A stretch of DNA of 64,000 bases from Minisyncoccota bacterium (GTDB taxonomy: Bacteria; Patescibacteriota; Minisyncoccia; Phycocordibacterales; UBA9973). The position numbers were made by a program, and so were the translations under genes. The first letter of the stretch is position 1, and the number at the start of each line of letters is the position of its first letter. Of this stretch, positions 1-62,516 are shown piece by piece. Where the stretch lies: positions 121,056 through 185,055 of the forward strand of contig JBAYFP010000001.1 of NCBI GenBank assembly GCA_041667145.1. Direction: 5' to 3'. The notes under the pieces are model-generated. The model searched no databases. It was not told where the DNA came from and saw nothing but the letters and a program-made list of their open reading frames with translations.

Positions 1-392
1 CTCTTTCTCAAAAATCAAATATCAGACAAGTGATTCCTATTTCTAAAAATAGTTTGAAGGAATTGATGGAAGAAATACACCTCTCCCCAACCCCTCTCCT
101 TAATAAGGAGAGGGGCGAAGGGGTGAGGTCTAAAATAGATTACCTGTTTGAAGGTGATCAAGAAGCATTGATAAAGTCACTTGCAGAAAAAATAACTAGA
201 ATGCAGATTTATCAAATGATTCTTGAGTCCAATGCTTCAGAACAATCTTCTCGAATGGTCGCAATGAAGAATGCTTCGGAGGCTGCAGGGGAAATGATAG
301 ATGATTTGACATTAGTATTCAATAAAGCTCGCCAAGGCAATATTACGAGAGAAATTTCGGAAATAAGTGCAGGCATGGCTTCGGTGAATTAA
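1..392 (+). CDS. atpG: F0F1 ATP synthase gamma subunit, C-terminal part (gene starts upstream of window)
   Basis: Frame is open to base 1. C-terminal motif ITREISEISAGMASV is typical of gamma, and the gene sits directly upstream of atpD and atpC. Contains an in-frame family-A palindromic insert (peptide HLSPTPLLNKERGEGVRS). Confidence 0.8.
   Translation, partial: LSQKSNIRQVIPISKNSLKELMEEIHLSPTPLLNKERGEGVRSKIDYLFEGDQEALIKSLAEKITRMQIYQMILESNASEQSSRMVAMKNASEAAGEMIDDLTLVFNKARQGNITREISEISAGMASVN
78..130. repeat. Family-A nested palindromic miniature repeat (core CCTCTCCTTAATAAGGAGAGG flanked by CACCCC/GGGGTG), in-frame inside atpG
   Basis: Read directly from sequence; near-identical copies at 2545-2598 (reverse orientation), 8901-8957 and 14366-14407. 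Confidence 0.8.
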
Positions 393-2234: not shown

Positions 2235-2957
2235 ATGAGTAAATTTTATGTAGTGGCGACGCCAATAGGTAATATGGGAGATATTACTCTCCGAGCCATT
2301 GAGACTCTAAAAGAGGTGGATTTAATATTGTGTGAGGATACTAGGGAAACAAGAAAAATCTTACAGAAATATAATATTAATACACCGACCATGAGCTATC
2401 ATACTCAAAGCAAGCTTGCTAAAGTAGATAAGATTTTTGAATTATTAGAAGAGGGGAAAAATCTAGCCTTAGTTTCTGATGCTGGCACACCGACTATTTC
2501 AGATCCAGGAGCAATGCTTATTTCTAAAATAAAAGAAAAATTTGACCTCACCCCTTCGCCCCTCTCCTTATTAAGGAGAGGGGTTGGGGGAGAGGTGGAT
2601 GTTCAGGTGATTCCAATCCCAGGCGCATCTGCTGTGATTGCTGCGCTTTCAGCTTCGGGATTGCCAACTCATGAATTTACTTTTCTTGGTTTTATGCCAC
2701 ACAAGAAAGGTAGAGAAACTCTTTTTAAGGAAATTGCTGAATCAAAGCGCACAATGATATTTTATGAATCTCCACATCGAATTTTAAAAACATTAGAATC
2801 TCTTGTAAAATTTTGCCCAAATAAAAAGGTCTGTATTGCTCGCGAGCTTACTAAAATTTATGAAGAAATTAAAACTGGCTCGCCATCTGAAATTTTAGAA
2901 TATCTCACTTCGAATCCCGTAAAACAAAAAGGGGAGTTTACGGTATTAGTCAGTTGA
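2235..2957 (+). CDS. rsmI: 16S rRNA (cytidine1402-2'-O)-methyltransferase RsmI (tetrapyrrole-methylase fold)
   Basis: N-terminus FYVVATPIGNMGDITLRAIETLKEVDLILCEDTRETRKIL is characteristic of RsmI. Contains a 53-bp in-frame family-A repeat (peptide DLTPSPLSLLRRGVGGEVD). Ends with TGA. Confidence 0.85.
   Translation: MSKFYVVATPIGNMGDITLRAIETLKEVDLILCEDTRETRKILQKYNINTPTMSYHTQSKLAKVDKIFELLEEGKNLALVSDAGTPTISDPGAMLISKIKEKFDLTPSPLSLLRRGVGGEVDVQVIPIPGASAVIAALSASGLPTHEFTFLGFMPHKKGRETLFKEIAESKRTMIFYESPHRILKTLESLVKFCPNKKVCIARELTKIYEEIKTGSPSEILEYLTSNPVKQKGEFTVLVS
2545..2598. repeat. Family-A palindromic repeat, reverse-complement orientation relative to the copy at 78-130, in-frame in rsmI
   Basis: Sequence gacctcaccccttcgcccctctccttattaaggagaggggttgggggagaggtgg is approximately the reverse complement of the 78-130 copy. 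Confidence 0.8.
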
Positions 2958-6362: not shown

Positions 6363-7136
6363 ATGAGCATTCTAGAAAATCTAGATAAAAATAATTTGCA
6401 CCATGCATATCTGATAGAAGGGGTTCGGGAAGAGATTGTGCCAGAGATTTTAGTACTTATGAAAAATCTTGGTATAGAAACTTCTAGCAATCCAGATTTT
6501 TGTCATATATCTGTAGATTCTTTTAAGATTGAAGATGCTCGTAATTTAAAATCAGTAGAATATGAAAAAGGTTTTTCAAATGGTAAAAAAATATTTTTAA
6601 TTTCTGCTAATAATTTTTTATTAGAAGCGCAAAATACATTACTTAAAATATTTGAAGAGCCGATAGAGAATACGCATTTCTTCTTGATTGTGCCAGATAA
6701 AAATATTTTACTTAAGACTTTAGTTTCTAGATTTTATTTGATTCCTACTAAACAAAATTTAGATGAAGGACTAAAAAAAGAAGCAGAGAAATTTATCAAA
6801 ATGCCTTTAAGAGATAGAATTGATTTTATTAAAGAATTATTAACAGAAGCAGAAGAAAATACGGAGGCCTTGCCTTCGCAAGGCGAAAGCAAGGCCTCCG
6901 CCAGATCCAAAGCATTGAAATTTTTAAATGCATTGGAAGCTATGTTGAATAGCAAATTTGTAAAGAATTTTTCCGGCTTAACCCTTCCCGGAGTACCGGG
7001 CGGGACCCACACCGTTCAAAATTCTTTACAAATTTGCTATCAACATATTTTTAAAGTTCGGGAGTTTTTAAATCAACCTGGTTCTTCGGTAAAGACTTTA
7101 ATGGAATCTGTGGCTTTGACTATTCCTAGTTTTTAA
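6363..7136 (+). CDS. holB: DNA polymerase III delta'-like clamp loader subunit
   Basis: HAYLIEG, NTLLKIFEEP...FFLI, SRF motifs resemble delta' (AAA+ without full Walker A). Carries two GC-rich in-frame palindromes. Confidence 0.55.
   Translation: MSILENLDKNNLHHAYLIEGVREEIVPEILVLMKNLGIETSSNPDFCHISVDSFKIEDARNLKSVEYEKGFSNGKKIFLISANNFLLEAQNTLLKIFEEPIENTHFFLIVPDKNILLKTLVSRFYLIPTKQNLDEGLKKEAEKFIKMPLRDRIDFIKELLTEAEENTEALPSQGESKASARSKALKFLNALEAMLNSKFVKNFSGLTLPGVPGGTHTVQNSLQICYQHIFKVREFLNQPGSSVKTLMESVALTIPSF
6862..6900. repeat. GC-rich nested palindrome inserted in-frame in holB-like gene
   Basis: cggaggccttgc-cttcgcaaggcgaaag-gcaaggcctccg: a perfect 12-bp inverted repeat around an inner palindrome, in a ~30% GC background. 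Confidence 0.7.
6983..7006. repeat. Second short GC-rich palindrome in holB-like gene (cccggagtaccggg)
   Basis: Read from sequence. Confidence 0.5.
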
Positions 7137-7724: not shown

Positions 7725-8900
7725 ATGAATATTATAATTTTTGTTGTAATTTTATTGATATTGGTTCTCGTTCATGAATGTGGGCATTTTTTTACTGCTA
7801 AGAAATTTGGTATTCGTGTAGATGAATTTGGCTTTGGTTTCCCTCCAAAATTATTTAGTTTTAAAAAAGGGGAGACAGAATATTCTATAAATGCTTTGCC
7901 TTTTGGAGGATTTGTTAAAATTTTTGGAGAAGATATGGATGAGGCAGATCTTTTAGAGGTTGGATTTTTAGATAAGAAACCTGCCCGCAATGCTGAAAGC
8001 ATAGCTTCTGCAGGCGGGGAAACTGTTGAAAAAGTTGATTTAGCTAGGAGTTTGGTAAGTAAACCTAAATATCAACAAGCAATGGTTATGTTTGCAGGTA
8101 TTTTTGCGAATTTTTTGCTAGCTTGGCTTTTATTTTCTGTGGGTTTTATCTCAGGGCTACCGACATCAGTAGGAAGTGAACCGAAAGGATATTCTGTGGC
8201 AGATGCGCATTTGGTTTTAGTTTCTGTTTTAGCTGGTTCGCCAGCAGAGATTTCAGGATTAAAGACTGGAGATAAAATAGTTTCCATAAAAAGTGGCAGT
8301 GATATTATTTCTGATATCAATCCTGATACATTAAAATCTTTTATACTCTCACATGGAGATAAGAAAATTGAATTTGGATATTTACGTGGAAAAAGTGAAA
8401 CGATAAACATCACAAATGTGACACCTATTAAAAAAACTGTTAATGAAAACCCCACTATTGGCATAGCTATGGACCAGATAGGAACCCTCAGATTGCCTAT
8501 TTTGAACGCTTTTTGGGAAGGGTTGAAGTTAGACTGGAATGTGACAAAAGGCACTGTAGTGGGCCTTTATACGCTTATATCAGGTGCTATACAAGGTAAA
8601 GGTAGCTTTTCTCAAGTTACAGGACCTGTAGGAATGGTAGGCATCGTAGGCGATGCATATCAATTTGGTTTTGTTTATCTTCTTTCTTTTATGGCATTGA
8701 TTTCAGTCAATTTAGCCATAATAAATCTTATTCCGTTTCCAGCACTCGATGGCGGAAGGATATTATTTTTACTTATTGAAAAAATAAAAGGTTCTCGCTT
8801 AAATCCTAAATTTGCAAATTATGCAAACATGATCGGTTTTGCTATTTTGATTTTATTGATGTTGGTTGTGACGTATCATGATGTAGTGAAATTGTTTTGA
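7725..8900 (+). CDS. rseP: RIP zinc metalloprotease RseP (site-2 protease family M50)
   Basis: HECGHF HExxH motif at the N-terminus, an internal PDZ domain, and C-terminal NLIPFPALDGGR; ends with TGA. Confidence 0.85.
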   Translation: MNIIIFVVILLILVLVHECGHFFTAKKFGIRVDEFGFGFPPKLFSFKKGETEYSINALPFGGFVKIFGEDMDEADLLEVGFLDKKPARNAESIASAGGETVEKVDLARSLVSKPKYQQAMVMFAGIFANFLLAWLLFSVGFISGLPTSVGSEPKGYSVADAHLVLVSVLAGSPAEISGLKTGDKIVSIKSGSDIISDINPDTLKSFILSHGDKKIEFGYLRGKSETINITNVTPIKKTVNENPTIGIAMDQIGTLRLPILNAFWEGLKLDWNVTKGTVVGLYTLISGAIQGKGSFSQVTGPVGMVGIVGDAYQFGFVYLLSFMALISVNLAIINLIPFPALDGGRILFLLIEKIKGSRLNPKFANYANMIGFAILILLMLVVTYHDVVKLF

Positions 8901-8957
8901 TCTCACCCCCAGCCCCTCTCCTTAATAAGGAGAGGGTGGCCGAAGGTCGGGTGAGGT
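8901..8957. repeat. Family-A palindromic repeat, intergenic (immediately after rseP stop)
   Basis: tctcacccccagcccctctccttaataaggagagggtggccgaaggtcgggtgagg. Confidence 0.8.
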
Positions 8958-9155
8958 GAATTTATGAAATCAGAAATCAAAACCTGTCAGAATTGCAAGA
9001 AAGACTTTACAATAGAGCCAGAAGATTTTAATTTTTATGAAAAAATAAATGTTCCTCCACCAACATTTTGCCCAGAATGCAGGATGGTGCGACGCCTTAC
9101 TTGAAGAAATGAGCGTTCTTTATTTCATGCGATATGTGATAGTTGTGGTAAAAAA

Positions 9156-10679
9156 ATGTTTTCTTCTTATTCATCAAAAAAAGATTATAAAATTTTCTGT
9201 AGAGAATGTTGGCTTTCAGATAATTTAGATCCTCTTTTATATGGACAAGACTATGATTTTTCCAAACCATTTTTTGAACAATTTAAAGAACTTTCAGAAA
9301 AAATACCCCATCTAAATCTTTTTCAGATTAATACAAAAAATTCTGATTATGCCAATGCAGTTAGAGATAGTAAAAATATCTATCTTTCATATTCTGTAGT
9401 AGATGGAGAAGACGTTTTTTATTCTAAAGACATTGATCGTTCTAGGCAAATTTATGATAGTATCACGACGACTGATTCTGAGAAATCAGCTTTTCTTGTT
9501 TATTGTGTAAATGATTACAATGTTATCTATTCAGTAATGACTATGGATTGTTTTGATTCTTCTTTTCTTTTTGATTGCCGAAATTGTTCTAATTGTTTTA
9601 TGTCTACTAATTTAAGGAACCAGCAATACGTATATAAGAATCATAAGTATAGCAAAGAAGAATATTTTTCTATAATTAATCAGATTGATACAGGTAGTCA
9701 CGAGGAGTTTAAAAAATTGGTGACAGAGTTTGAAGAAATGAAATGTAAGGCTATTCATAAGTATTCTCATGTTGGTAAATCCGTTATCAATTCTACGGGG
9801 GATGCTATAAGTAATACTAGAAATTCAAAAGAATGCTTTAACGCATATAACACAGAAAATGTGAAATGGGTTTATAGAGGTTTTGATTTAAAAGATTCCT
9901 ATGATTGCAATCATGGTGGGCTTATGTCTGAGCTAGTATATGAATTTATATCTGGAGGGAAAGAAGAATATAAGACATATTTTACTGCTTCTGCTATGAA
10001 TCCATTACGGGACACTTATTATACTGCTTGGTCTACAGGTTCAAAATTATTTGGTTGTTTTGGTATTAAAGGTGATAGTTATTGTATCTTAAATAAAAAA
10101 TATACCAAAGAAGAATATGAAGAATTAATACCAAAAGTAATTAAACATATGAATGATATGCCTTATGTGAATGATAAGGGAAGAGTGTATAGATTTGGTG
10201 AGTTCTTTCCTTTTGAACTTTCTCCTTATGCATACAATGAATCTGTCGCTCAAGAATTTTTTCCGTTATCATCTGAAGAGATAGTAAATAAAGGTTATAC
10301 ATATTATGAAAATGAAAAGAATAAATATGAAATTACTAAAAAGCCTGAAGACTTGCCAGATAATATATCTGAAGTTAATGAAGATATATTAAAAGAAGTC
10401 ATTGAATGTGAACATAAAGGAGAATGTTTGCATCAATGTACTACTGCTTTTAAAATACACCCTGAAGAGTTTTCTTTTTATCGTAATCACAAACTCCCAA
10501 TTCCACATTTATGTCCCAATTGTCGTTTTTATGAAAGATTAAAATATCGTAACCCTTGGAAACTTTGGCATAGAAAATGCATGAAGGAAGGGTGTACTAA
10601 TGAATTTGAGACTCCTTATGCTCCAGATAGACCTGAAACAATCTATTGTGAACGTTGTTATCAGCGTGAAGTATACTAG
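9156..10679 (+). CDS. Cys-rich multi-zinc-ribbon protein of unknown function (paralog of 62517..64000). Likely true start at 8964, with an in-frame TGA at 9102-9104.
   Basis: ORF-track ORF of 507 aa. Many CxxC pairs. C-terminal block HKGECLHQCT...LPIPHLCPNCRFYERLKYRNPWKLWHRKC...PDRPETIYCERCYQREV is shared with the gene at the other end of the window. Confidence 0.7.
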   Translation: MFSSYSSKKDYKIFCRECWLSDNLDPLLYGQDYDFSKPFFEQFKELSEKIPHLNLFQINTKNSDYANAVRDSKNIYLSYSVVDGEDVFYSKDIDRSRQIYDSITTTDSEKSAFLVYCVNDYNVIYSVMTMDCFDSSFLFDCRNCSNCFMSTNLRNQQYVYKNHKYSKEEYFSIINQIDTGSHEEFKKLVTEFEEMKCKAIHKYSHVGKSVINSTGDAISNTRNSKECFNAYNTENVKWVYRGFDLKDSYDCNHGGLMSELVYEFISGGKEEYKTYFTASAMNPLRDTYYTAWSTGSKLFGCFGIKGDSYCILNKKYTKEEYEELIPKVIKHMNDMPYVNDKGRVYRFGEFFPFELSPYAYNESVAQEFFPLSSEEIVNKGYTYYENEKNKYEITKKPEDLPDNISEVNEDILKEVIECEHKGECLHQCTTAFKIHPEEFSFYRNHKLPIPHLCPNCRFYERLKYRNPWKLWHRKCMKEGCTNEFETPYAPDRPETIYCERCYQREVY

Positions 10680-10762
10680 AGACGTTGGACATCTGGGAGT
10701 ACCCAGGTGTACAACGTCTGAGTTTCTTGACGTTGTACGTCTTCCTGAGACGTCCAACGTCT
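10679..10762. repeat. Family-C nested palindromic repeat (AGACGTTGGAC...GTCCAACGTCT), abutting the stop codon of the Cys-rich gene
   Basis: 84 bp; outer 11-bp inverted repeat plus inner GTACAACGTCTGAG / GACGTTGTAC palindromes; nearly identical copy in reverse orientation at 49434-49516. Confidence 0.85.
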
Positions 10763-10804
10763 AAATTAATTTTGCAAAGATATTTTATTTTATGCACATA
10801 GTCC

Positions 10805-10855: not shown

Positions 10856-13222
10856 TTGCAAAGGTATATGAAAATAGCACTTTTAACTGGTGGACCATCT
10901 TTAGAACGTGGAATATCGCTTAATTCAGCTCGCTCAGTATTAGATCATTTGGAGGATGAAAATATTGAAATTATTCCTATTTATTTCGATTATAAAAAAA
11001 GGGCCTATAAAATATCAAAAGCTCAACTTTATTCTAATAACCCTTCTGATTTTGATTTTAAATTATCTAAAAATTCTTCTGCATTAAGTCAAAAATCTTT
11101 AATAAAATTTCTAAAATCTGTAGATATAGTTTTTCCAGCGATGCATGGTCCTTTTGGTGAGGATGGACAAATCCAGGCATTTTTAGAAAAGAATAATATT
11201 CCATTTATAGGATCAGGAAGTGACACTTGCAAGATGGCCTTCGATAAGTATGAAGCTAACAAAATTCTTAAAAAGGAAGGGTTTTTTACTTTACCTTCCG
11301 CATTATTAAAGATTTACTCTAAGGATAATGCAAAAATAGTAAAAAACTTTTTTAAAACTTACAAAATAAAAAGAGCCATAGTAAAACCTGCTACAGGCGG
11401 ATCTAGCATCGGAGTATTTTCAGTAAATACATGGAAGGAGGCCATGGAGAAGGCTGACATTCTTTTCTCAAAGAGAATGGATACAAGAGTAGTGCTCGAA
11501 CCTTTTGCAAAAGGTAAAGAATTCACGGTCATAATTTTACAAAATAAACTCGATATGCCGGTGGCCTTATTGCCATCTGAGATTGAGATGACATATCACG
11601 ATGGAAGGATTTTTGATTTTCGTAAGAAATATTTGCCTACAAACCAAGTCCAATACCATTGTCCTCCAAGGTTTTCTAAAGAAGTGATAAAGAAGATACA
11701 GATAGAGGCAAAGCAAATTTTTTCTATGTTTAAAATGAATGATTTTGCTCGTTTTGATGGCTGGATTTTAGAAGATGGGAATATTTGGTTTTCAGATTTT
11801 AATACAGTATCAGGAATGGAACAAAATAGCTTTTTATTTCAACAGTCTGCTCAATTTGGTATGAGCCATAGTGATTTTCTAAATTATGTAATAAGAAATT
11901 CATGCGCTAGGCAAGGTATAGCTTTTAATGAAAATTCTAAAAAAGTTCCAAAAAGGAAACCAGTTTCAGTAATTTTTGGTGGGCATACATCTGAAAGACA
12001 AGTTTCATTAATGAGTGGGACAAATGCTTGGCTAAAATTAAAAAAGTCAAAATTATATGAGCCCAAGCCATATTTATTAGATTTTGAAAATAATGTTTGG
12101 GAGTTGCCCTATGCGTTGACGCTAAATCACACGGTAGAAGAGATCTTTGATAATGTTAAAAATGCAAAAGCACGAAGAGAAAAAGTTCTAGATTTGATTC
12201 GATCAATCAAAGACGAACTTATGTTATCACAAAACGAAACTTCTGAAGAATTCTTTATTCCTAAGAAAATGTCATTTGATAAATTCATGGATCAGTCGAA
12301 ATTTGTTTTTTTAGGTCTTCATGGGGGTGATGGAGAGAATGGTAAGATTCAAAAGATGTTGACAGAAAAGGGTATAAAATTTAATGGTTCAGGCGAAGTG
12401 ACTTCGAGTCTTTGTATGGATAAATTTGAAGCTGGGAAATTTATAAGATGTATGAAAATGGATAACATAGGTATCGCTTCACAAAGGATGATTTATTTAA
12501 AAGATATCGATTTAGAAAAAATCGGGGAACTTTGGAAAAATCTTAGTTTAAAACTTGAAACAAAAACGTTGATTGTTAAACCAAAAGATGATGGATGCTC
12601 TACAGGTGTGGCTCATTTATATAGAGAAGAAGATTTAAAAAATTATCTTAAATATACATTGGAAGGTAAGAAATCTATTCCATCTGGAGTCTTAAAGAAT
12701 CAAAATACTATTATTGAAATGCCCCACAAAAGAATCAATGAACTTCTTTTTGAAAAATTTATTGAAACTGATTCAGTAAGTATAAGAGGTAATAAATTAA
12801 AACATTTGAGAAAGACTGGCTGGATTGAAGTCACTATTGGAATTTTGGAAAAAGAAAAAAAAATGTATGCTTTCAATCCTAGTATCACCATAGCTGAAGG
12901 AGAGGTGCTTTCGTTAGAAGAAAAATTTCAAGGAGGCACAGGCATAAATATTACTCCTCCACCTGCTGAAATTGTGAAATCAGTAATATTAAAAAAGGTA
13001 AGAGAAAGAGCAGAACAATTAGCTAAAGAAATCGGTATCAAGGGATACGCTAGAATAGATGCTTTTATGAATATAAATACAGGCGCATTGCTTGTCATTG
13101 AAGTGAATACCTTGCCTGGGCTCACTCCTTCGACAGTTATTTATCATCAAGCATTAGCTGAAAATATGGCTATTTTCCCAAGAGAATTTTTGGAAAAAAT
13201 AATAAAGAACTCTGGATATTAA
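10856..13222 (+). CDS. ddl: tandem-fused D-alanine--D-alanine ligase (two complete ATP-grasp Ddl modules in one 788-aa protein)
   Basis: Each half has Ddl N-terminal (KIALLTGGPSLERGISLNSA / VSVIFGGHTSERQVSLMSG), central (HGPFGEDGQIQAFLE / HGGDGENGKIQKML) and ATP-grasp C-terminal motifs; the next gene is alr. Confidence 0.8.
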   Translation: MQRYMKIALLTGGPSLERGISLNSARSVLDHLEDENIEIIPIYFDYKKRAYKISKAQLYSNNPSDFDFKLSKNSSALSQKSLIKFLKSVDIVFPAMHGPFGEDGQIQAFLEKNNIPFIGSGSDTCKMAFDKYEANKILKKEGFFTLPSALLKIYSKDNAKIVKNFFKTYKIKRAIVKPATGGSSIGVFSVNTWKEAMEKADILFSKRMDTRVVLEPFAKGKEFTVIILQNKLDMPVALLPSEIEMTYHDGRIFDFRKKYLPTNQVQYHCPPRFSKEVIKKIQIEAKQIFSMFKMNDFARFDGWILEDGNIWFSDFNTVSGMEQNSFLFQQSAQFGMSHSDFLNYVIRNSCARQGIAFNENSKKVPKRKPVSVIFGGHTSERQVSLMSGTNAWLKLKKSKLYEPKPYLLDFENNVWELPYALTLNHTVEEIFDNVKNAKARREKVLDLIRSIKDELMLSQNETSEEFFIPKKMSFDKFMDQSKFVFLGLHGGDGENGKIQKMLTEKGIKFNGSGEVTSSLCMDKFEAGKFIRCMKMDNIGIASQRMIYLKDIDLEKIGELWKNLSLKLETKTLIVKPKDDGCSTGVAHLYREEDLKNYLKYTLEGKKSIPSGVLKNQNTIIEMPHKRINELLFEKFIETDSVSIRGNKLKHLRKTGWIEVTIGILEKEKKMYAFNPSITIAEGEVLSLEEKFQGGTGINITPPPAEIVKSVILKKVRERAEQLAKEIGIKGYARIDAFMNINTGALLVIEVNTLPGLTPSTVIYHQALAENMAIFPREFLEKIIKNSGY

Positions 13223-14365: not shown

Positions 14366-14407
14366 TCACCTCACCCCGACCCTCTCCTTAACAAGGAGAG
14401 GGGGAAT
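14366..14407. repeat. Family-A palindromic repeat (shorter copy), intergenic after alr
   Basis: tcacctcaccccgaccctctccttaacaaggagagggggaatt. Confidence 0.7.
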
Positions 14408-15196: not shown

Positions 15197-18100
15197 ATGA
15201 AATTTACTGTTTTTTCTCGTAAAAAAATTCCACACAAAGTTGGAGGCTTTTCTCGTGTTATAAGACTGAAAATTAAATTAAGATTTGAAAAATTAAGAAA
15301 GAAAAAATTTGAAGAATCTATAGTGAGAATAATAAAAGAAAAAATGTTAATGAGAAAAGAAGAAATTAAGAAAATGATTAAAATAATAAAAGAAAACATA
15401 ATGCCGAAAAAAATGATAAACACAAAAAACATTTTAGTTTCTTTTTTTATTTTTTCTTTTTCTTTTTCTTTTTTATATAATCCAAATCAGGTTTTAGCTG
15501 TAGCGCCTACAGTAAATATTACATATAGTTCGAACCCAGTTAAAGCAGGGACACAGAGAATCTCAGTTACATATTCTTCTCAGCCTGCAAGTACTCCTAC
15601 CATTGGTATTAATCAACTAGGAACTACAGATATTCCAAATGGTACAGCTATGGTTCCTCCTTATAGTGATATCAATGCTCCTGGAGTCACTTGGTCAAAT
15701 CCTTTATCATCTAACATAGGATCTGCAGGTGGTTATTGGAATTCTATTGCCTATGGTAATGATATATTTGTAGCTGTTTCGAATTATGGATCAGGTAATA
15801 AAGTAGCAACATCTTCTGATTATGGTGTTACTTGGATTCCTAGGACACCTGCAGAGAGTAACAATTGGGAATCTGTTACTTTTGGCAATGGTATTTTTGT
15901 CGCAGTTTCAAGTAATGGTAATCATAGAGTTATGACCTCAGATAACGGAATTAATTGGTTTCCTCAAAATGTTACGGAAGATTATGACTGGCAATCTGTT
16001 ACTTATGATAATGATCATGGAGTTTTTGTAGCTGTTGCTGATTCTGGTACACATAGAGCAATGACTTCGTCAGATGGTATTATTTGGGAATATAAAACAA
16101 CAGGTTCATATTCTTGGAATTCTGTTGCTTATGGTAACGGAGTTTTTGTAGCTGTTGGTAATCTTGGTAAAATACAAAAATCAACAAACAGCGGTGATAC
16201 ATGGAATGATCCTCAAATAAATAGTAATTCGGCATATTTATATTCTGTTGCTTATGGTAACGGAGTATTTGTTGCAGTCGGGGCTAGTGGTACTATAAGA
16301 ACTTCTTCAGATTTTGGTGATACTTGGCAAGAGCAAACTTCAGGAACTGGTTTAACTATTTCAGATGTGACTTTTGGTAATAATACTTTTGTTGCAGTTA
16401 CTAATTCTAGTGCTAATTTGTTTTTAACTTCACCTGATGGTTTACATTGGACAAGTAGAACAGCTACAGCCGGTGCTACATCTATTGCTTATGGTACTCC
16501 TACTATCAGTGGTGTTGAGACCTCTATGTTTGTAGCAGTTGAGCGTACGAGCTCTCTTGGTACTAATTTAATTACTTCTACAAGTAGAAAATTAAGTTTT
16601 GATGCTGCTCATACATATTATTATGATTATACAGTTTGCGCTGCTGGTAATAGTGGCACTGGTGCTTGCGAGGGTAATTATGTAGATGGTACAGCGACAG
16701 TCACCTTATCAGATGTAAAAGATCTATATGGTGTTTCATATACCCCAAGTGGTACTACATTTACGATTGATACTACCGAAAGTGCTCCCGGTACTCCTGA
16801 TATGACAGCAGGGACAGATACTGGTTCCTCTAGCACAGATAATACTACTTCTGACACGACTCCTGATTTTACTATTTCTTGTGATACTGGAGCTACTGTC
16901 ACTTTATATAAGGATACAACTTCTTCAGTTGGTACGGGAACATGTTCTTCTTCAACGGTTACAATAACTTCATCAACTCTTTCAGCTGGTACTTATGCAA
17001 TGAACGCTAAACAAACTGATGCAGCGGGTAATACTTCGAGTGCATCAGGAAATCTTTCAGTTACGATTGACACAACTGCGCCTAGCGTCAGTACTGTTAC
17101 TTACTCTAGATCTAGTATAAAACAAAATGATACATTAACTATTACAGTTAATTTTAATGAAGCTTTAGCAATTACTAATCCTCCACAAATTGCGATTTCA
17201 GGAGTTAATAATCTTACAGCTACAAATATGACAGAAGGATATGAGACTTGTGATCGTCATCCATGTGCACAAGTGCTGAGTCCTTCAAGGTGGACTTATG
17301 ATTTTTCTATACAGTCAGGAAATGGTTCACCGACTGTTACTATAAGTGCAGGTCAAGATGCAGCAGGAAATATTATGACAAATGCCTCTTCTCCTACTAG
17401 TTTTTCTAGTTTTACAGTAGACAATATTGCTCCAACAAATCAAAATACTGTTTTTCCAACCTCAATTTCAAAAAAGAGTAGCGTGACAGTGACATCACCA
17501 AATATTGTTTCTGCAGGAGAAACAGGTGGTTCAATTTGGTTTGCTCCATCGGGAACAACTACATTTACAGCTGGTGCAACTATGACTACAGCAGGAGGGA
17601 CAGCCACAACTATTTTAGCTCCACTTACTGCAGGATCATATAAATTATTTGTCCGTGATGCAGCCGGAAATACATCTTTAGCCTCGACTGCGATTTTGAC
17701 TGTCGATAATACTGCACCGACTGTTGCCTTATCATATACCTCCGATCCAATTAAGGCGGGGACACAAACTATTACAGCTACATATTCTAAAGCGATTACA
17801 AGTATTCCAAACATTAGAGTTGATCAATATGGGACTGTGCCAGATGATCTTCTTTTTCATCCAATGACCAATAATGATAGTGGAGTTAATAAAGTTTGGA
17901 AATATGATTATACAGTTCATGCAGCTACTGATTCATGTCCACAAGGGGGAACTCCTCCTTGTTATGCAGATGGTACAGCTCAAGTATCTTTATCATCTAC
18001 CACAGATGTAGCGGGAAATACTTCTGGTACTCCTAGTAGTTCTACATTCATAATTGACACCGCAGCACCTACAAATTCTATCAGTGCTCCATCAGTTTCT

Positions 18101-21100
18101 TCTACTTCAATTGGTCCTGTAACATATACTGTTTCTTACTCAGGAGCAAATACTGTTTCACTTGCTAATGAGAATATAACTTTAATCAAAACAGGAACAG
18201 CTGATGGAACAGTCGCTGTTTCAGGTACTGGTATATCTTCTCGAACAGTGACTATTTCTTCTATCACTGGTACTGGCACTTTAGGAATTTCTATTGCTGC
18301 TGGTACTGCTTCTGATACTGCGGGAAATACTTCTCTAGCTATGGGAGCGTCTACTACTTTTGATGTAAGTAATGTTCCTTTAACAGTTGCAAGTATTTCT
18401 GTAGATTTAGCCTCAGGTTCATATAAATCTGGTCAAGCAATAATAACAACAGTAACTTTCTCTAAAGATGTTACATCGACTGGGAATGCAACTGTGACAT
18501 TTGATACGGGAGGGACATGTACTTTTACTATTAGTAATGCTTCATCAGGAAGTTGTACTTATACTGTCGGGGCTGGACAAAATTCTAGTGTTTTAGCTGT
18601 CTCGTCTGTTACGGGGACTATAAAAGATGCTGCCTTAAATTTATTGACTGCAACTACTCCTGTGATGAATATTTCTCCAACAAAAACAATTGTGATTGAT
18701 ACCACAGCACCAATTCTTTCCTTCACTGATGATGTAGCTGTTGGTCCTACATCTTCTGATACAATCACTGCTTCTTGGGTTGGTACTACTACTGGACAAA
18801 AAAAATGGATGTATGATACGGATAGAATTTGTTCACCTACTTCAACTGATTACACAATGACAGATAGTGATTCAATGGATCAAATTACAACCACAAACAA
18901 TACAAAATTTATTTGTTTGTATGGAGCAGATCTTGCTGGAAATTATTCAACACTAGCTTCAACAAATGATATAAATATTGATGCTAGTGGACCGACTGTC
19001 AGTATTTCTTCTCCCACTTCAAGCCCTACAAACGAAACAATAACTGTTAATGTTTTGTTTGATAAATCTGTTTCTGATTTTATTTATTCTGATATTTCAG
19101 TTACAAATGGTACAGTTTCATCTGCATCTTTTTCTGGCTCAGGAATGACTTATTCTTTTATAGTTACACCAACAGCTAATGGAGTAGTTGGTATAAGTAT
19201 TGGTTCAGGGGTGGCACATGATACAGCAGGAAATACAAACTCTGCTTCTAACTCTATATCCATAACATATAGTAATATAGGGCCGACAGTTATTTTAAGT
19301 TCCCCGTCACCTTATTATATTAATGGCTCATTCGATGTCGTTGCCACCTTTAGTGAACCTGTGACTGGGTTTACTTCAGCGGATATTACTATAAATGGTG
19401 GTATAGGTAATAGTTACGTAGACGGTTGGGCTGATGATGGTACAACGTATGAATTTTCTATTGTTCCAGATGGAGGAGGAATTGTTACTGTTGATATTAA
19501 TGGTGGAGTTGCTGTAAATGCAGCCCAAAATGGGAATATCGCTGCTACACAACTTTCTAGATTAAATGATACTGCTCCGCCTACTGCATATGATATCCCA
19601 ACAATTTGTTCTGTTGAAGGAAATTTATGTACTACCGCAGGTCAAAATGCCGATCCACAGGAAGTATATGATGTCGGTATGAGTACTATTTCTAGTACTG
19701 CCGAAGATGGTGATTCAGGAATAAGTAATGTTCAAATTTCAATTAATGATACTACTGCCAATAAATGGTATAACGGTACAATATTTACAACATCTGGTAG
19801 TGAAATATTATTAAATACAGTATTTGCATATTCAGAGAACGACGGGCAAACTCACTGGAGTTATGATTTTTCTAGCGTACCTTTAATTACTGGGGATACG
19901 TATACGATTAAAGTTACTGTTACAGATGGAGTATCTAATACAAATACTGCATCAGAATCTTTTAAATTTATAAATTCTGCACCAGAAGTTTCGAATGTAG
20001 TTCCATTGGAAGATGCGACTGGTTTAGTGACAGTGCATTATGATGTTACAGATAATGAATCTTCTCAAACTACGAATTATTTATTTTACAGTGTAGGAGG
20101 AAATGGTGTAGACGCAGGTTTAGCTAGTGACGCAACAAGTCTTAATTTATCTGACGCTACTTATTTCCCAAATTCAGGAATTATTCTTATAGATAATGAG
20201 ATGATTTCTTATACAAGTAAATCAGGAGCTACTCTTTTAGGTCTCACCAGAGGGATATTAAATACGATACCAGTTGCTCATGAAGATAGTGCTACTGTAT
20301 ATATAAAAGCAAGTTCAGCTACAGGTGGCGGAATTGGATTATCTGATGTTGGTACAAATAAGACTATAACTTGGCAAGCATCTTCTGATGCAAATGGATA
20401 TGAATATGATGTATCTTTTATTAAAGTTGTTGCAAATGATGGAGGAGTTGCCAATATGGTAGGTTCAGCAACTAACGAGGAAGGATTTATTCTTGATGCA
20501 AAAGCACCTACTGCAACAGTCACATTTGACGCTGGTGTCGGGGGAGAAACAAATAGTGGAGTAATTACTATTCCGATGCCTGAAGATATATCAGCTGTTG
20601 AGTATAAGATTACAGATGTAAATAATTTGTCAACAAATGCAGATTCTGGTGTTTGGAAATCTATAACGACTAGTACAACTTTACCTTGGACTTTTGATTC
20701 TAATATCATAGCAAGAAGTTTGAAATATCAGTTTAGAGATGCATACGGAAATATTGGATCTGAAATTACTACCTCTACCCAAGATCCGATTCCTACTAAG
20801 TTATTTACTGTCACTGATACATCGAATGTTTCATCAACACCTGCTTATCATCAAATGCATATGGATTGGCAGGCAGTGAGTTCTAGTGGGTTTTCTTCTT
20901 ATAAATTAGAATATAAAACATCTAGAAATAATATTAATTACATTGGTAATGGTTACACATCTATCTCTAGTACAGCTCTCAACAATGTTAGTACTGATAG
21001 TTATGATGATAAAAGTTTAACGCCAGATAATTTTTATAAATATCGTATAGGGATAATCGGTACTAATGGTAATGTTTCTATGAGATCAGATACTATTCTC

Positions 21101-24067
21101 GTTCGAGCAAATGGATTTCAGGATTATGATGAAGGTGGTGGAGGGACTGTTTTAAAAGCTCCAAAAGTAGAAAATGTTGTTCCGATTCAGGGATCAGATA
21201 AAAATGTGACAGTTAATTATCTTTTAACTGATACTTCATTATCAAAAAAGATTGATCTATTTTATGAAGGATATTTATTCTACAATATAGGAATTACATT
21301 ACCTGAAGATTCTTTTTCTGAATCTGAAGATACCTTAACACTTTCTGATACATCAAAATTAAAATCCTCTGGTTATATTTTAGTTAATAATGAAGTTATA
21401 AAATATACCTCTATAAGTGGAAATGTTTTAGAAGGTTTGACACGAGGTACTTGGCCTAATTTATCTACTTCTGGTAGAACGACTAGAACAAATTCTACTT
21501 TCTCTACAGGAGCTCCTGTTTGGATATTTGCAAATAATACTATCCCTATAGCTATAAATAGTAATTCCTCAATAATTTCTGGAGAAGCAGAATCAATAGT
21601 ATGGAATACAGAGGATGAAACAGGGTTAAAAGGTAATGTCTTTTCTAAAGTAGAATTCAAGGTATTAATTCATGACAATCAAACTTCTTCTCTAGGACCT
21701 ATATCCAGTCAGAATGATTCTTCCCAAGATGGAATTTTAAGTATTCTAGATCTTAGTGATACTGTTATTGAACCTACTGTCAAATCTACCAGTGCTGTTA
21801 TCACTTGGAATACTGATGATTATTCTGATTCTCTTATAGAATATGGAACGACTGAAGGTGTATATAATTTATCAAAAAGTAATTCAGATAGAGTTACGAG
21901 TCATCGTATTTATCTAAGTAATTTATTACCAAGTACGACTTATTTCTATAAAACAACTTCTACGAATGAATTGAGTGAAGCTATTACTTCTACGGGTCAA
22001 TTTACGACAAGTCCTAGTCCTGTGGTGACTAGTGTAAGTGTTCAAAGTGTGACTGATACAACTGCTGTAATAACATGGACCACAGCTGATGTTGTTTCAA
22101 GTTCTTATGTCGTATATTCGACTAATTCAGATTTAAGTGGCTCTATTACTGTCAATGATGATGAACTTGTGACAGATCACACAGTAACTTTAAGTGGACT
22201 TACACCAGAAAGGAATTATTATTTTAAAGTTTATTCTGTTGATGCTAATGAATATATTGGAGAAAAAACAGACAATCCTGATCCAGATACAAGTACTGAA
22301 GAAATATATTTTATGTTTACTACTGGATTAGATGAAACTGCTCCAATTATTTCTAATATTCAAATACCAATCATTACATATTCTGGAGTGGCAATAATAT
22401 GGACGACAAATGAGCAAGCCGATGGGCGGATAGGTTATAGTACAGAGAGCGTAGAAGATGGTGGGTCATACACTTATACTGATGTTGTCCCATTGTCTGG
22501 AGCATTAGTCACTAATCATGTCGCTACTATTGAAGATTTGAGGAAAACTACTAAATATTATTATGTAGTCGAATCTACAGATACACAGGGGAATACTGCT
22601 ACCTCTGATGAAGGGAATTTTACGACTGATAGACAACTAACAACTGGAGGGGGTAATGTTATAGGAGTTCTACAAGAGATCTATGATGCATTAATGAAAG
22701 AAAATGAAGAAAATAAGGCTAGATTAAAGAATCAGAGTTCTGATATTCCTGTTATATCAAATGTTGATATTGTAGATGTGAATGCCTTTGGAGCAACGAT
22801 CAGTTTCAATACAGATAAAGAAACTGTGGGGGGTGTCGATTATGGGAAAGATACAAAATATGGTAAAAATGAAGGTGATTTTATTTGGAGCACTACTCAT
22901 AAAATAGTTCTCAATGGTCTTACTATGGGTACTGATTATAATTTTAAGATAAAAGTTATCGATAGATATAGTAATATTGGTACTGGAGACAATCAGACTT
23001 TTAAAACGAAATTCTTAACTGAAAAACTCGCTGAACTTCAGAAGATAGAAAATATTGAGCAATTTCAAAAAGAAATAGAAGCCACAATTGAATCGATTTT
23101 GCCTTCGCTTGTGCCTCCTTTTATTGACCTACCGGCTATAACTAATATTACTGAAAATACTGCCACTATTACCTTCAAGACAAATATAAAAACATATCCA
23201 GTAGTAAATTATAGTTCCGATGCTACTTATGACATTACAAAAGAAAATCCATATGAAGGGGAAATAACGGATACAACTGAAAAAAGCTTAGACCATACGT
23301 TATCTCTTATTGGATTGAAACCTAATACAAAATATCACGTGATGGCGAAGGCGTACTCTCTTCCTCAAGTCATAGGTAAATCAGTAGATGTAACTTTTAC
23401 AACTAAACCATCGAAAATAAAAGCAACGATTACGGAACGTAAAAATGATTCGTTTACAATAGTATGGGTTACTGATGGCCCTACTTCTTCAATAGTAGAA
23501 TACAAAGATTTGAAAACAAATAAAACAGGAAGAATATCTGATGACGCAAAAAATACTTCACATTCTGTAAAAATAGAAAATCTTACCCCTGGTACCTCAT
23601 ACACGGTAGATGTTTCAGGATACAATGATATAGGCAATCTAGTAGAGGGATCTGAGACTCTAACAGTAAATACACTTACAGATACTGTTCCTCCGGTCAT
23701 CTCTAATTTTAAACTTGATAGTGCATTAGTATTAGGACGTACTGATAAGACTCAGACGATAGTATCATGGACTACAGATGAGCCATCCACCTCTATTGTT
23801 TATTATGAAGAAGGTTCTGGGTCACCTGATAAAGCACTTGCCAATAAACAAGAAAATAGCGAGCTATCAATAAACCATGTCATTATCTTGACTACATTAA
23901 GACCGGGTACAGTTTATAGATTCCAGATAGCTTCGAGAGACAATGCTAATAATATCAATACGCTTCCTATTCGAACCATCATCACACCAAGACCAAATGA
24001 ATCCATTGTTGACATAATCTTCAAGAATTTTGACGAGACGTTTAATTTCTTGAAAAATGTGCAGTAA
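15197..24067 (+). CDS. giant secreted/cell-surface protein (2956 aa): K-rich N-terminal extension plus hydrophobic signal/anchor, BNR/Asp-box beta-propeller, multiple Ig-like domains, at least six FN3-like domains
   Basis: Asp-box repeats (SSDYGVTW, TSDNGINW, SSDGIIW, STNSGDTW, SSDFGDTW, SPDGLHW) with YGNGxFVAV blades. Repeated TIDTTAPS / TVDNTAPT / IIDTAAPT / VIDTTAPI domain boundaries. FN3-like repeats (AVITWNTDDYSDSLIEYGTT..., TAVITWTTADVVSSSYVVYST..., VAIIWTTNEQADGRIGYST...). An alternative start at ATG 15401 gives a classical signal peptide. Confidence 0.8.
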   Translation: MKFTVFSRKKIPHKVGGFSRVIRLKIKLRFEKLRKKKFEESIVRIIKEKMLMRKEEIKKMIKIIKENIMPKKMINTKNILVSFFIFSFSFSFLYNPNQVLAVAPTVNITYSSNPVKAGTQRISVTYSSQPASTPTIGINQLGTTDIPNGTAMVPPYSDINAPGVTWSNPLSSNIGSAGGYWNSIAYGNDIFVAVSNYGSGNKVATSSDYGVTWIPRTPAESNNWESVTFGNGIFVAVSSNGNHRVMTSDNGINWFPQNVTEDYDWQSVTYDNDHGVFVAVADSGTHRAMTSSDGIIWEYKTTGSYSWNSVAYGNGVFVAVGNLGKIQKSTNSGDTWNDPQINSNSAYLYSVAYGNGVFVAVGASGTIRTSSDFGDTWQEQTSGTGLTISDVTFGNNTFVAVTNSSANLFLTSPDGLHWTSRTATAGATSIAYGTPTISGVETSMFVAVERTSSLGTNLITSTSRKLSFDAAHTYYYDYTVCAAGNSGTGACEGNYVDGTATVTLSDVKDLYGVSYTPSGTTFTIDTTESAPGTPDMTAGTDTGSSSTDNTTSDTTPDFTISCDTGATVTLYKDTTSSVGTGTCSSSTVTITSSTLSAGTYAMNAKQTDAAGNTSSASGNLSVTIDTTAPSVSTVTYSRSSIKQNDTLTITVNFNEALAITNPPQIAISGVNNLTATNMTEGYETCDRHPCAQVLSPSRWTYDFSIQSGNGSPTVTISAGQDAAGNIMTNASSPTSFSSFTVDNIAPTNQNTVFPTSISKKSSVTVTSPNIVSAGETGGSIWFAPSGTTTFTAGATMTTAGGTATTILAPLTAGSYKLFVRDAAGNTSLASTAILTVDNTAPTVALSYTSDPIKAGTQTITATYSKAITSIPNIRVDQYGTVPDDLLFHPMTNNDSGVNKVWKYDYTVHAATDSCPQGGTPPCYADGTAQVSLSSTTDVAGNTSGTPSSSTFIIDTAAPTNSISAPSVSSTSIGPVTYTVSYSGANTVSLANENITLIKTGTADGTVAVSGTGISSRTVTISSITGTGTLGISIAAGTASDTAGNTSLAMGASTTFDVSNVPLTVASISVDLASGSYKSGQAIITTVTFSKDVTSTGNATVTFDTGGTCTFTISNASSGSCTYTVGAGQNSSVLAVSSVTGTIKDAALNLLTATTPVMNISPTKTIVIDTTAPILSFTDDVAVGPTSSDTITASWVGTTTGQKKWMYDTDRICSPTSTDYTMTDSDSMDQITTTNNTKFICLYGADLAGNYSTLASTNDINIDASGPTVSISSPTSSPTNETITVNVLFDKSVSDFIYSDISVTNGTVSSASFSGSGMTYSFIVTPTANGVVGISIGSGVAHDTAGNTNSASNSISITYSNIGPTVILSSPSPYYINGSFDVVATFSEPVTGFTSADITINGGIGNSYVDGWADDGTTYEFSIVPDGGGIVTVDINGGVAVNAAQNGNIAATQLSRLNDTAPPTAYDIPTICSVEGNLCTTAGQNADPQEVYDVGMSTISSTAEDGDSGISNVQISINDTTANKWYNGTIFTTSGSEILLNTVFAYSENDGQTHWSYDFSSVPLITGDTYTIKVTVTDGVSNTNTASESFKFINSAPEVSNVVPLEDATGLVTVHYDVTDNESSQTTNYLFYSVGGNGVDAGLASDATSLNLSDATYFPNSGIILIDNEMISYTSKSGATLLGLTRGILNTIPVAHEDSATVYIKASSATGGGIGLSDVGTNKTITWQASSDANGYEYDVSFIKVVANDGGVANMVGSATNEEGFILDAKAPTATVTFDAGVGGETNSGVITIPMPEDISAVEYKITDVNNLSTNADSGVWKSITTSTTLPWTFDSNIIARSLKYQFRDAYGNIGSEITTSTQDPIPTKLFTVTDTSNVSSTPAYHQMHMDWQAVSSSGFSSYKLEYKTSRNNINYIGNGYTSISSTALNNVSTDSYDDKSLTPDNFYKYRIGIIGTNGNVSMRSDTILVRANGFQDYDEGGGGTVLKAPKVENVVPIQGSDKNVTVNYLLTDTSLSKKIDLFYEGYLFYNIGITLPEDSFSESEDTLTLSDTSKLKSSGYILVNNEVIKYTSISGNVLEGLTRGTWPNLSTSGRTTRTNSTFSTGAPVWIFANNTIPIAINSNSSIISGEAESIVWNTEDETGLKGNVFSKVEFKVLIHDNQTSSLGPISSQNDSSQDGILSILDLSDTVIEPTVKSTSAVITWNTDDYSDSLIEYGTTEGVYNLSKSNSDRVTSHRIYLSNLLPSTTYFYKTTSTNELSEAITSTGQFTTSPSPVVTSVSVQSVTDTTAVITWTTADVVSSSYVVYSTNSDLSGSITVNDDELVTDHTVTLSGLTPERNYYFKVYSVDANEYIGEKTDNPDPDTSTEEIYFMFTTGLDETAPIISNIQIPIITYSGVAIIWTTNEQADGRIGYSTESVEDGGSYTYTDVVPLSGALVTNHVATIEDLRKTTKYYYVVESTDTQGNTATSDEGNFTTDRQLTTGGGNVIGVLQEIYDALMKENEENKARLKNQSSDIPVISNVDIVDVNAFGATISFNTDKETVGGVDYGKDTKYGKNEGDFIWSTTHKIVLNGLTMGTDYNFKIKVIDRYSNIGTGDNQTFKTKFLTEKLAELQKIENIEQFQKEIEATIESILPSLVPPFIDLPAITNITENTATITFKTNIKTYPVVNYSSDATYDITKENPYEGEITDTTEKSLDHTLSLIGLKPNTKYHVMAKAYSLPQVIGKSVDVTFTTKPSKIKATITERKNDSFTIVWVTDGPTSSIVEYKDLKTNKTGRISDDAKNTSHSVKIENLTPGTSYTVDVSGYNDIGNLVEGSETLTVNTLTDTVPPVISNFKLDSALVLGRTDKTQTIVSWTTDEPSTSIVYYEEGSGSPDKALANKQENSELSINHVIILTTLRPGTVYRFQIASRDNANNINTLPIRTIITPRPNESIVDIIFKNFDETFNFLKNVQ

Positions 24068-49427: not shown

Positions 49428-49433
49428 CTATTT

Positions 49434-62431: not shown

Positions 62432-62472
62432 ATGTAGATTATATCAAATATAATGGATTTTTCCCAGACCTA

Positions 62473-62513: not shown

Positions 62514-62516
62514 TAT

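Follow-up and report, generated by a model that had tools for sequence, protein, structure and literature searches.

A GC-rich hairpin repeat of the BoxC/PIT kind, in intergenic DNA and in frame inside atpG and rsmI of a Paceibacterota genome

The DNA considered here (the window) is a 64-kb stretch of a Paceibacterota genome (contig JBAYFP010000001.1, assembly GCA_041667145.1), a member of the Candidate Phyla Radiation (CPR). It contains four copies of a GC-rich hairpin repeat of 51-58 nt, termed Family A, two of which are translated as part of the ATP synthase gamma gene atpG and the 16S rRNA methyltransferase gene rsmI. The atpG and rsmI copies are real lineage-specific in-frame insertions, and an in-frame position of the repeat is common in CPR genomes rather than peculiar to the window. 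Judged by its sequence, Family A is a variant of the G/C-rich BoxC/PIT (potential intrastrand triplex)/triplex-motif kind, outside the strict E. coli family. It is probably a non-coding, non-autonomous dispersed repeat that spreads at the DNA level and is filtered by selection.

Compared with the searchable literature, two observations are new: a CPR repeat that often lies in frame in housekeeping genes, and the presence of at least 12 unrelated palindromes in the same two loops. No prior account of the Family A repeat, or of palindromic in-frame insertions in CPR/Patescibacteria, was found in the open-access literature.

Architecture of the repeat

The whole window was searched with the 21-nt core CCTCTCCTTAATAAGGAGAGG, allowing up to three mismatches and using 100 shuffles as the control. 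The core matched exactly four sites and no other, with 0 expected from the shuffles. These are the places named by a first-pass annotation made from the letters alone, with their limits now refined (Table 1).

In the full form of the element, the left half consists of an outer arm ACCTC(A/T)CCCC, a linker of 2-4 nt, an 11-bp inner stem CCCCTCTCCTT and a 3-nt loop, and is followed by a right half with inner stem AAGGAGAGGGG, a linker of 2-4 nt and outer arm GGGG(T/A)GAGGT. The linker range is also given as 2-5 nt, the inner stem ends in TT/AA and encloses a 3-nt AT loop. The outer arms form terminal inverted repeats of 10-11 nt in copies 1-3. For example, copy 1 reads ACCTCTCCCC / AA / CCCCTCTCCTT-AAT-AAGGAGAGGGG / CGAA / GGGGTGAGGT, and copies 1 and 2 are the same element in opposite orientations (98% complementary over 49 nt).

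Copy 3 shares its first base with the end of the rseP stop codon, and 5 nt separate its last base from an ATG at 8964. Copy 4, placed by the first-pass annotation at 14366-14407, is a half element that starts 5 nt past the alr stop codon and represents the three-block unit on the minus strand. This unit, CCCTCTCC, loop, GGAGAGGG, linker, GGGGTGAGGT, is doubled in the window into a nested palindrome.

The GC content of the copies is 57-61%, lower than the ~70% first estimated, compared with 33.5% for the window. For copies 1-4, calculated folding energies are -19.7, -20.5, -16.8 and -10.5 kcal/mol as DNA and -36.2, -40.9, -33.9 and -18.0 kcal/mol as RNA, with fold z-scores of -3.0 to -5.9; copy 4 was scored as a weak terminator-like site. 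The initial description of a dispersed GC-rich nested-palindrome family is borne out, and its hairpins are strong. Three of the six reading frames of the element are free of stop codons. Direct sequence comparison found nothing in common between the flanks of the four window copies.

In-frame copies in atpG and rsmI

Copy 1 is read in AtpG as HLSPTPLLNKERGEGVRS, i.e. (H)LSPTPLLNKERGEGVR(S), and copy 2 in RsmI as LTPSPLSLLRRGVGGEV, at residues ~104-121, with EEIHLSPTPLLNKERGEGVRSKIDY as the predicted insert-spanning segment. Both intragenic copies leave the host open reading frame (ORF) open and, as first proposed, add 17-18 residues in frame to each protein.

The window RsmI is identical to NCBI MFA6585666.1. 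Residues 1-101 and 101-222 of E. coli RsmI (PDB 5hw4) align to query residues 1-101 and 120-239, with an 18-residue gap precisely at the element. The 17-18 residues are missing from E. coli RsmI and from ~40% of close RsmI orthologs, and are therefore an insertion. Supporting this, the site is empty in many orthologs of 80-90% identity; alignment to orthologs, which the first-pass annotation had put forward as the check for lineage-specific insertion, came out in its favour for rsmI. An ancient conserved peptide is ruled out by the same E. coli protein and empty orthologs. An assembly artefact is also ruled out, as the same rsmI insert is present in dozens of independent JGI, ENA and NCBI assemblies.

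Among the 120 best database relatives (77-100% identical, with Paceibacterota or Nomurabacteria as source names), RsmI lengths range from 218 to 263 aa, and the whole of this difference maps to one loop. In an AlphaFold2 model of RsmI built from 59 ortholog sequences (mean predicted local distance difference test score, pLDDT, of 76.5; moderate quality), residues 107-119 have a pLDDT <50 and lie between helix 90-102 and strand 123-129, so that the modelled insert fits a floppy surface loop. In AtpG, the element occupies a variable linker directly before the conserved DYLFEGD, the start of the C-terminal helix, and PDB gamma chains align only from residue ~39-43 on, just past the insert.

In the RsmI ortholog P0058 (263 aa) the loop holds two inserts in succession, first a peptide like that of Family A and then one from another GC-rich repeat (…LSLTRRGGGGEVSMQGRSLLEKNSSPLLGGGLGG…), which suggests that elements pile up or nest at this site.

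Empty, filled and exchanged sites in related lineages

Eighty orthologous rsmI loci were taken from metagenomes, and rsmI is intact in all of them. Their loop occurs in three states: empty (for example ...AAAGAAAAATTTAATGACGTGCAA...), filled with Family A (the window, L121, L123/124 and L128) or filled with an unrelated palindrome. Comparison of filled and empty sites across these loci places the limits of Family A at ACCTCACCCC...GGGGAGAGGT, 51 nt or 17 codons, and showed no duplicated flank that would indicate a target-site duplication. The junctions of L121 and L122 are identical, yet the linkers have traded places in L122, as a flipped element would show. Between L121 4268-4381 and L122 1118-1231, the linkers TTCG...TTGG face CAAC...CGAA around an identical central loop, TTATCAA; this swap reflects either two nested inversions or an independent replacement.

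At least 12 unrelated palindromes occupy the same few nucleotides of the rsmI loop in sister lineages, for example ACGTCAACA...TGTTGACGT, CTTGGACAT...ATGTCCAAG, CCGCTAGGCAAGACCTAGCGG and CCCCTGAGGCAAGACCTCAGGGG. Some palindrome is also found in the atpG linker of ~12 of 40 lineages. The atpG linkers of L137 and L187 carry the palindrome family found in L137 rsmI; in L137 (Ga0209211_10001567) a single unrelated 46-nt perfect palindrome, CAACTTGGTAGTCGGAGTACCAAGTGGTACTCCGACTACCAAGTTG (peptide VVGVPSGTPTTK), sits in both the atpG linker and the rsmI loop. In L121, which is closest to the window by rsmI, the atpG copy of Family A is absent and a low-complexity Asn/Lys-rich linker of 21 residues stands in its place. 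In the atpG of P0121/L230 the element is a half, CCCCCTCTCCTTCACAAGGAGAGGGCTGGGGTGAGGTC, whose right junction is that of the window copy.

About 450 kb from 80 related Paceibacteria yielded only the rsmI orthologs and one other Family A copy, compared with four copies in the 64 kb of the window. The expansion of Family A in the window is lineage-specific.

The rsmI element is 85-96% identical between lineages, while the flanking rsmI coding sequence is 72-78% identical. All 22 inner-stem bases (11-bp stems) are invariant, and changes fall in the loop (ATT, ATC, GTT, AAC) and the outer arms. At the protein level, ~35 RsmI orthologs with a Family A insert vary mainly at the loop codon (LSL-L/S/T/A/I-RR). 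Because the rsmI element is better conserved than its diverged flanks, the likeness of copies 1 and 2 is no sign of recent transposition. The first-pass annotation had taken this likeness to suggest a recent or active family, a view that does not stand, given that the rsmI copy is orthologous across these lineages and that the ortholog of the atpG copy in another lineage is a half-copy. The similarity reflects constraint or homogenisation rather than youth, and we infer that the element is kept constant either because its fold is selected or because other copies in the genome homogenise it.

Distribution across phyla

A cross-phylum scan of one genome per species used CCTCTCCTTNNNAAGGAGAGG as the query, which holds only the inner hairpin and not its flanks, and returned at least 120 matching stretches. 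Among the matches listed, carriers include Nostoc, Rivularia and Scytonema (the richest sources of the core), Calothrix and other cyanobacteria, Bacteroidota, Ignavibacteria, Armatimonadota (>60% GC), Chloroflexi, Verrucomicrobia, Nitrospirales, Elusimicrobia and one Bathyarchaeia metagenome-assembled genome. CPR carriers among these matches are Nomura-, Morani-, Kerfeld-, Falkow-, Uhr-, Gracili- and Saccharibacteria.

Within the same listed matches, GG[AT]G[AT]GG lies no more than 22 nt from the hairpin in 104 of 136 hairpins, compared with a 1% background. This third block is one-sided in 91 of the 104 hairpins and two-sided in 13. Of 117 blocks, 109 read GGTGAGG, mostly in the form (A)ACCTCACCCC or GGGGTGAGGT(T). 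Since it recurs even though the flanks were not part of the query, the conserved entity is the three-block unit: C-block, G-block and mirror G-block. Uniqueness to the window was among the outcomes that the first-pass annotation named as refuting its reading, and the family is far from unique. No conserved target motif or GTAG-type head of a repetitive extragenic palindrome (REP) was seen beside the four window copies or in the listed cross-phylum flanks.

The unit is present on 29 viral contigs, with the third block beside the hairpin in 31 of 35 viral matches. Isolated phages and plasmids gave one match each at E <0.01 (Virus Rctr41k and Stanieria plasmid NC_019765), too few for either to be accepted as the vector. 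The plasmid match (NC_019765.1 41678-41717, 90.5%; conjugative plasmid of Stanieria cyanosphaera PCC 7437) lies under an annotated cas10d in a type I-D CRISPR locus.

Seven of the 17 CPR matches are at least 40 codons deep in long ORFs. Judged by eye from motifs, their hosts in other CPR classes look like a helicase of the UvrD/PcrA kind, an AAA ATPase resembling RarA and a FemAB-like protein, and two more of these matches fall in a giant intein-containing protein. Outside CPR, in-frame copies are sporadic (a GcvP (glycine dehydrogenase)-like gene in Runella and a kinase-like gene in Rivularia, both by eye, and cas10d on the Stanieria plasmid), and cyanobacterial copies are mostly intergenic.

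A Candidatus Kerfeldbacteria contig (L083, JACQKH010000054.1) has two in-frame core copies, at 2826 and 7201, in one ORF of >2,600 aa. Each copy lies just past a Cys-Val/Thr-Thr-Gly-Asp...Arg-rich segment resembling an intein start.

Kinship with the BoxC/PIT motif

The three blocks of the Family A unit are CCCCTCTCC, which is pyrimidine, GGAGAGGGG, complementary to it, and GGGGTGAGGT, which is mirror-related. The published TMECO pattern, CCCTCNCCC N3-6 GGGNGAGGG N3 GGGNGAGGG (PMC4666352), has 0 matches in the window, whereas a relaxed pattern, CCCTCNCC N3-9 GGNGAGGG N1-8 GGGNGAGG, finds five where none is expected, two each in copies 1 and 2 (one per strand) and one on the minus strand of copy 4. 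Compatibility with a triplex was judged by class II purine-motif triads (G.G-C, A.A-T, T.A-T) in three consecutive blocks with a stem of 6-15 nt. All nine predicted triads are allowed for GGAGAGGGG with GGGGTGAGG and with GGGGAGAGG, as they are for the E. coli blocks, and copy 1 is compatible with these rules on both strands. The repeat is placed as a BoxC-kind variant because its triads obey the rules and the relaxed pattern fits while the published pattern fails.

Origin and maintenance of the repeat

The best supported account of Family A, a probable one in which a non-autonomous repeat spreads and selection filters the survivors, would run as follows. The repeat would spread as DNA, moved by something encoded away from it that makes no duplication at the target. 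In copies 1-3 the unit lies on both strands, giving the nested palindrome. Copies surviving inside genes would be those with a length divisible by three (51 nt), read in one of the three stop-free frames and placed in a tolerant surface linker, such as the RsmI loop between its helix and strand or the variable linker before the C-terminal helix of ATP synthase gamma. As three of six frames are open and the length is a multiple of three, such a filter on random insertions suffices for the in-frame copies. The Pro/Ser/Gly/Arg/Glu-rich peptide would then be a passenger loop rather than an adaptation, and the stems, which are kept far better than the host gene, would owe this to fold selection or homogenisation. 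The insertions and where they lie, the architecture of the family, its occurrence across phyla, the unequal conservation and the lack of a local transposase (among the ORFs scanned) and of a target-site duplication are observed; the selfish or neutral nature of the repeat, the filtering of its survivors and its way of moving are the parts that we infer.

Several observations weigh against this account. Mobility is read only from the distribution of copies, with no mobilising enzyme or target-site duplication found, and no polymorphic (same-species) empty site was found. The atpG event may have been a replacement rather than a simple insertion, considering the linker of L121 at that site. Stem conservation beyond synonymous sites could equally mean that the copies serve the host. 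Furthermore, GGTGAGG is strongly preferred over GGAGAGG, which neither triplex rules nor hairpin formation explain and which points to a partner that recognises the sequence. The account explains neither why GGTGAGG is near-invariant across domains nor why unrelated palindromes keep appearing in two particular loops, which leaves room for a host function or for structure-directed cassette exchange.

One alternative takes the hairpin for a cis-regulatory or structural element of the host that selection maintains, with the peptide as the price paid. It could stabilise mRNA or mark a site for its processing, pause translation while domains fold, serve as terminator or attenuator where genes end, or offer a nucleoid or replication protein a triplex or cruciform in the DNA. 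The conservation of stems over flanking coding DNA, with changes concentrated in the loop, would fit such a role, as would RNA hairpins of -34 to -41 kcal/mol, the position of both intergenic copies against stop codons, the terminator-like score of copy 4 and a GGTGAGG block that is near-invariant in many phyla, suggestive of a specific binding partner. However, close orthologs are often empty or carry an unrelated palindrome at the same site, so no particular sequence is required there. Studies that Holder 2015 (PMC4666352) cites in its introduction detected no promoter, terminator or polymerase-blocking activity of the E. coli motif in vivo, and the genes neighbouring that motif share no functional class (Holder 2015, PMC4666352). 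We regard a host element as unlikely. Its form as a portable ribosome-binding site, prompted by AAGGAG and GAGGT in the G-rich arms and by the end of copy 3 just before an ATG, is rejected as a general role: an ORF of 60 aa or more follows nine of 148 G-arm ends (6.1%) at Shine-Dalgarno spacing, no more than the 6.1% for random positions. A known RNA family was also rejected, as Rfam at gathering thresholds reports three tRNAs only, and permissive settings give sub-threshold chance matches over copy 2 (flavi_FSE, 23.6 vs 43 bits).

The repeat could instead be a classical miniature transposable element with inverted repeats (MITE) or REP doublet (REPIN), moved by ordinary transposition. It would then derive by deletion from, or be a hairpin substrate for, a transposase whose gene lies in another part of the genome, such as an enzyme of the HUH type found in IS200/IS605 or REP-associated tyrosine transposases (RAYTs), working on single-stranded hairpins. 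This is decidedly unlikely in our view, although the terminal inverted arms of 10-11 nt, small size, many copies, lineage-specific expansion and occurrence on viral contigs and a conjugative plasmid all speak for it. HUH-type elements leave no target duplication, and the lack of one at the rsmI junctions fits such movement. Against this, a Pfam scan of the window ORFs of at least 100 aa, except the 2,956-aa ORF and the right-edge ORF, found no transposase or recombinase; its matches are all housekeeping genes, and the remaining ORFs have no Pfam match. The listed cross-phylum copies are mostly one-sided, unlike an element dependent on terminal inverted repeats, and lack the target motif or REP head sought beside them. 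The E. coli motif is likewise unlinked to transposons, phages and plasmids (Holder et al., PMC4666352).

Repeated local origin of the palindromes, with fragile AT-rich linkers undergoing template switching or hairpin-primed repair and no existing element moving, would account for at least 12 different palindromes in the same few nucleotides of rsmI, and many in the atpG linker, in related lineages. Nevertheless, the same 51 nt recur at four unrelated sites of the window, the same core and flanks recur in distant phyla, and L137 has one other family in both genes. Template switching would also copy neighbouring DNA, yet the inserts have ~60% GC in surroundings of ~33% GC. Such an origin is hardly credible.

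A bolder proposal, which we consider doubtful, is that the three-block unit is cross-domain mobile DNA without its own transposase, a structure-directed cassette, forming a hairpin or triplex, that invades or replaces hairpin-extruding or single-stranded sites. This would account for the dozen unrelated palindromes that one loop of RsmI and one of ATP synthase gamma hold in sister lineages, the identical junctions with swapped linkers in L121 and L122, the half and full forms at one orthologous atpG site, and an atpG copy that replaces a linker of equal length. If true, the surface loops of essential CPR proteins would be under continual rewriting by a general 'palindrome cassette' process.

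Significance

The BoxC/PIT motif has had no function or mechanism since the 1990s, and has been studied mainly as an enterobacterial intergenic repeat, with counts in cyanobacteria. The present observations extend the three-block unit to ultra-small CPR genomes, an archaeal metagenome-assembled genome and viral contigs, and place it in frame inside essential genes. They also identify a few protein loops as recurrent landing sites for many palindrome families. The resulting natural series of filled and empty sites makes junction rules and rates readable, and bears on how proteins of reduced genomes gain lineage-specific loops. For annotation, many 'PLL-KERG' and 'SPSPYxGEG' peptides in predicted proteins derive from repeats.

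Other repeats and genes in the window

A second palindromic family, AGACGTTG(G/T)ACGTCT...AGACGTCCAACGTCT, occurs at four sites, three of them intergenic and one inside topA, whose ORF is intact. The first site starts directly after the stop codon of a 507-aa ORF, and two of the sites (10677-10766 and 49430-49519) are 98% complementary over 90 nt. In addition, topA contains an in-frame triplex-motif-like GC-rich element, CCCCTCCT-GCC-TGAGGAGGGG, then a small hairpin and GGGGTGGTGGGAGGTT, which looks like a sub-family related to Family A.

The holB gene for DNA polymerase III delta' has an intact ORF with an 18-bp-stem palindrome, CGGAGGCCTTGCCTTCGC-AAG-GCGAAAGCAAGGCCTCCG, and a further GC-rich island. 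Palindromes very similar to it lie in the atpG linker of L126, L167 and L186. A 47-nt hairpin repeat, CCTGCCCGCAATGCTGAAAGCATAGCTTCTGCAGGCGGGGA, is shared at 79% identity by two unrelated intact genes, rseP and a ctpA-like S41 peptidase gene, and reads KKPARNAESIASAGGE in RseP.

Among the genes, a 788-aa ORF with two stretches each of the Pfam domains Dala_Dala_lig_N and Dala_Dala_lig_C is apparently a tandem Ddl-Ddl fusion, and is followed by alanine racemase. The 2,956-aa ORF has internal repeats of ~123 nt (41 aa) near its 5' end (families D1, D2 and D5). The 46-aa zinc-ribbon-like ORF (CQNC...CPEC) that starts 5 nt after copy 3 lies upstream of the Cys-rich 507-aa ORF, which has no Pfam match; the two may be one frameshift-split gene or two genes.

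Table 1. Positions of the Family A copies, their host genes and further repeats and genes in the window
Feature	Position	Strand	Description
Copy 1	79-129	+	Full symmetric, 51 nt, inside atpG
Copy 1, left half	79-88; 89-90; 91-101; 102-104		Left arm; linker; inner stem; loop
Copy 1, right half	105-115; 116-119; 120-129		Inner stem; linker; right arm
Copy 2	2545-2596	-	Full symmetric, opposite orientation to copy 1, inside rsmI
Copy 2, arms	2545-2554; 2586-2596
Copy 2, inner hairpin	2559-2583
Copy 3	8900-8958	+	Intergenic, full element with second small hairpin GGCCGAAGGTC at 8937-8949, before right arm
Copy 4	14368-14404	-	Half element in intergenic DNA; has arm ACCTCACCCC and inner hairpin but no right arm
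Copy 4, three-block match	14369-14402	-
atpG, 3' part	1-392	+	ORF runs off left end of window; Pfam PF00231, E 1.7e-32; hosts copy 1
rsmI	2235-2957	+	16S rRNA C1402 2'-O-methyltransferase; Pfam PF00590; PDB 5hw4, E 2.5e-51; hosts copy 2
Second palindromic family	10680-10766; 33098-33146; 49433-49517; 62471-62515
topA	32024-34324	-	Contains a site of the second family
topA GC-rich element	33674-33725	-	In frame
holB	6363-7136
holB palindrome	6862-6900
holB GC-rich island	6969-7022
47-nt repeat	7974-8020; 54418-54464		In rseP; in ctpA-like gene
46-aa ORF	8964-9104		Zinc-ribbon-like
507-aa ORF	9156-10679		Cys-rich
788-aa ORF	10856-13222
2,956-aa ORF	15197-24067

Comparison with known systems

The first-pass annotation had called the repeat similar to Rickettsia palindromic elements (RPEs), described from Rickettsia genomes as repeats of ~150 bp (PMC10969869). 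The behavioural part of this comparison stands: in both cases, palindromic repeats lie in frame in unrelated housekeeping genes of a reduced genome and add a tolerated peptide (PMC10969869). The family assignment does not, since Family A is 51-58 nt long rather than ~150 bp (the RPE criterion being ~100-150 bp), GC-rich, of BoxC/PIT three-block structure with a cross-phylum core, and hosted by Paceibacterota. By this analogy, Family A resembles RPEs in behaviour only and is no RPE, set apart by length, host and description.

REPs of the REPIN-RAYT type and the small dispersed repeats (SDRs) of Nostoc are also short GC-rich non-coding hairpin repeats, sometimes arranged as inverted doublets. 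Nostoc SDRs are reportedly nested and insert without duplication. REPs are extragenic and tied to a RAYT gene (Bertels & Rainey 2011, PMC3116915), unlike Family A, half of whose copies are intragenic; no RAYT or Y1 transposase domain was found among the window ORFs scanned.

The nearest mechanistic counterpart found is a class of palindromic GC clusters in the AT-rich mitochondrial genomes of yeast and others (GC42, 42 nt; Wu & Hao 2015, PMC4478555). These too are short GC-rich palindromes in a very AT-rich genome, sporadic in distribution and variable in copy number, with loops that take substitutions and stems that change more slowly than synonymous sites (PMC4478555). GC clusters are transferred horizontally between species and their units fuse into compound elements (PMC4478555). 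They differ in having a putative AG target-site duplication (PMC4478555), absent from Family A, and in being an organelle system with no evident sequence relation to it.

The closest likeness in sequence is to the BoxC/PIT/TMECO motif of E. coli, for which Holder 2015 (PMC4666352) gives the example CCCTCTCCC-TGT-GGGAGAGGG-CCG-GGGTGAGGGC and in vitro evidence of an intrastrand purine-motif triplex. The same source also notes many G/C-rich triplex motifs in cyanobacteria (PMC4666352). The E. coli words CCCTCTCCC / GGGAGAGGG / GGGTGAGGG are nearly identical to CCCCTCTCC / GGAGAGGGG / GGGGTGAGG of the window. Both repeats consist of a C-rich stem, a G-rich stem and a mirror G-rich third block, occur as similar repeated copies with loops less conserved than stems, and form inverted pairs. 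No transposase is associated with the E. coli motif, nor with Family A among the window ORFs scanned, and both are very uneven in copy number between related genomes. Nevertheless, Family A differs in its 11-bp inner stem ending in TT/AA, 3-nt AT loop and linker of 2-5 nt, and in the usual doubling of its unit in the window into one compact nested palindrome. In E. coli K-12 the motif is always intergenic, unlinked to transposons and tied to local genome rearrangement (PMC4666352), whereas two of the four window copies are translated in frame, in a CPR bacterium of 33% GC rather than a proteobacterium or cyanobacterium.

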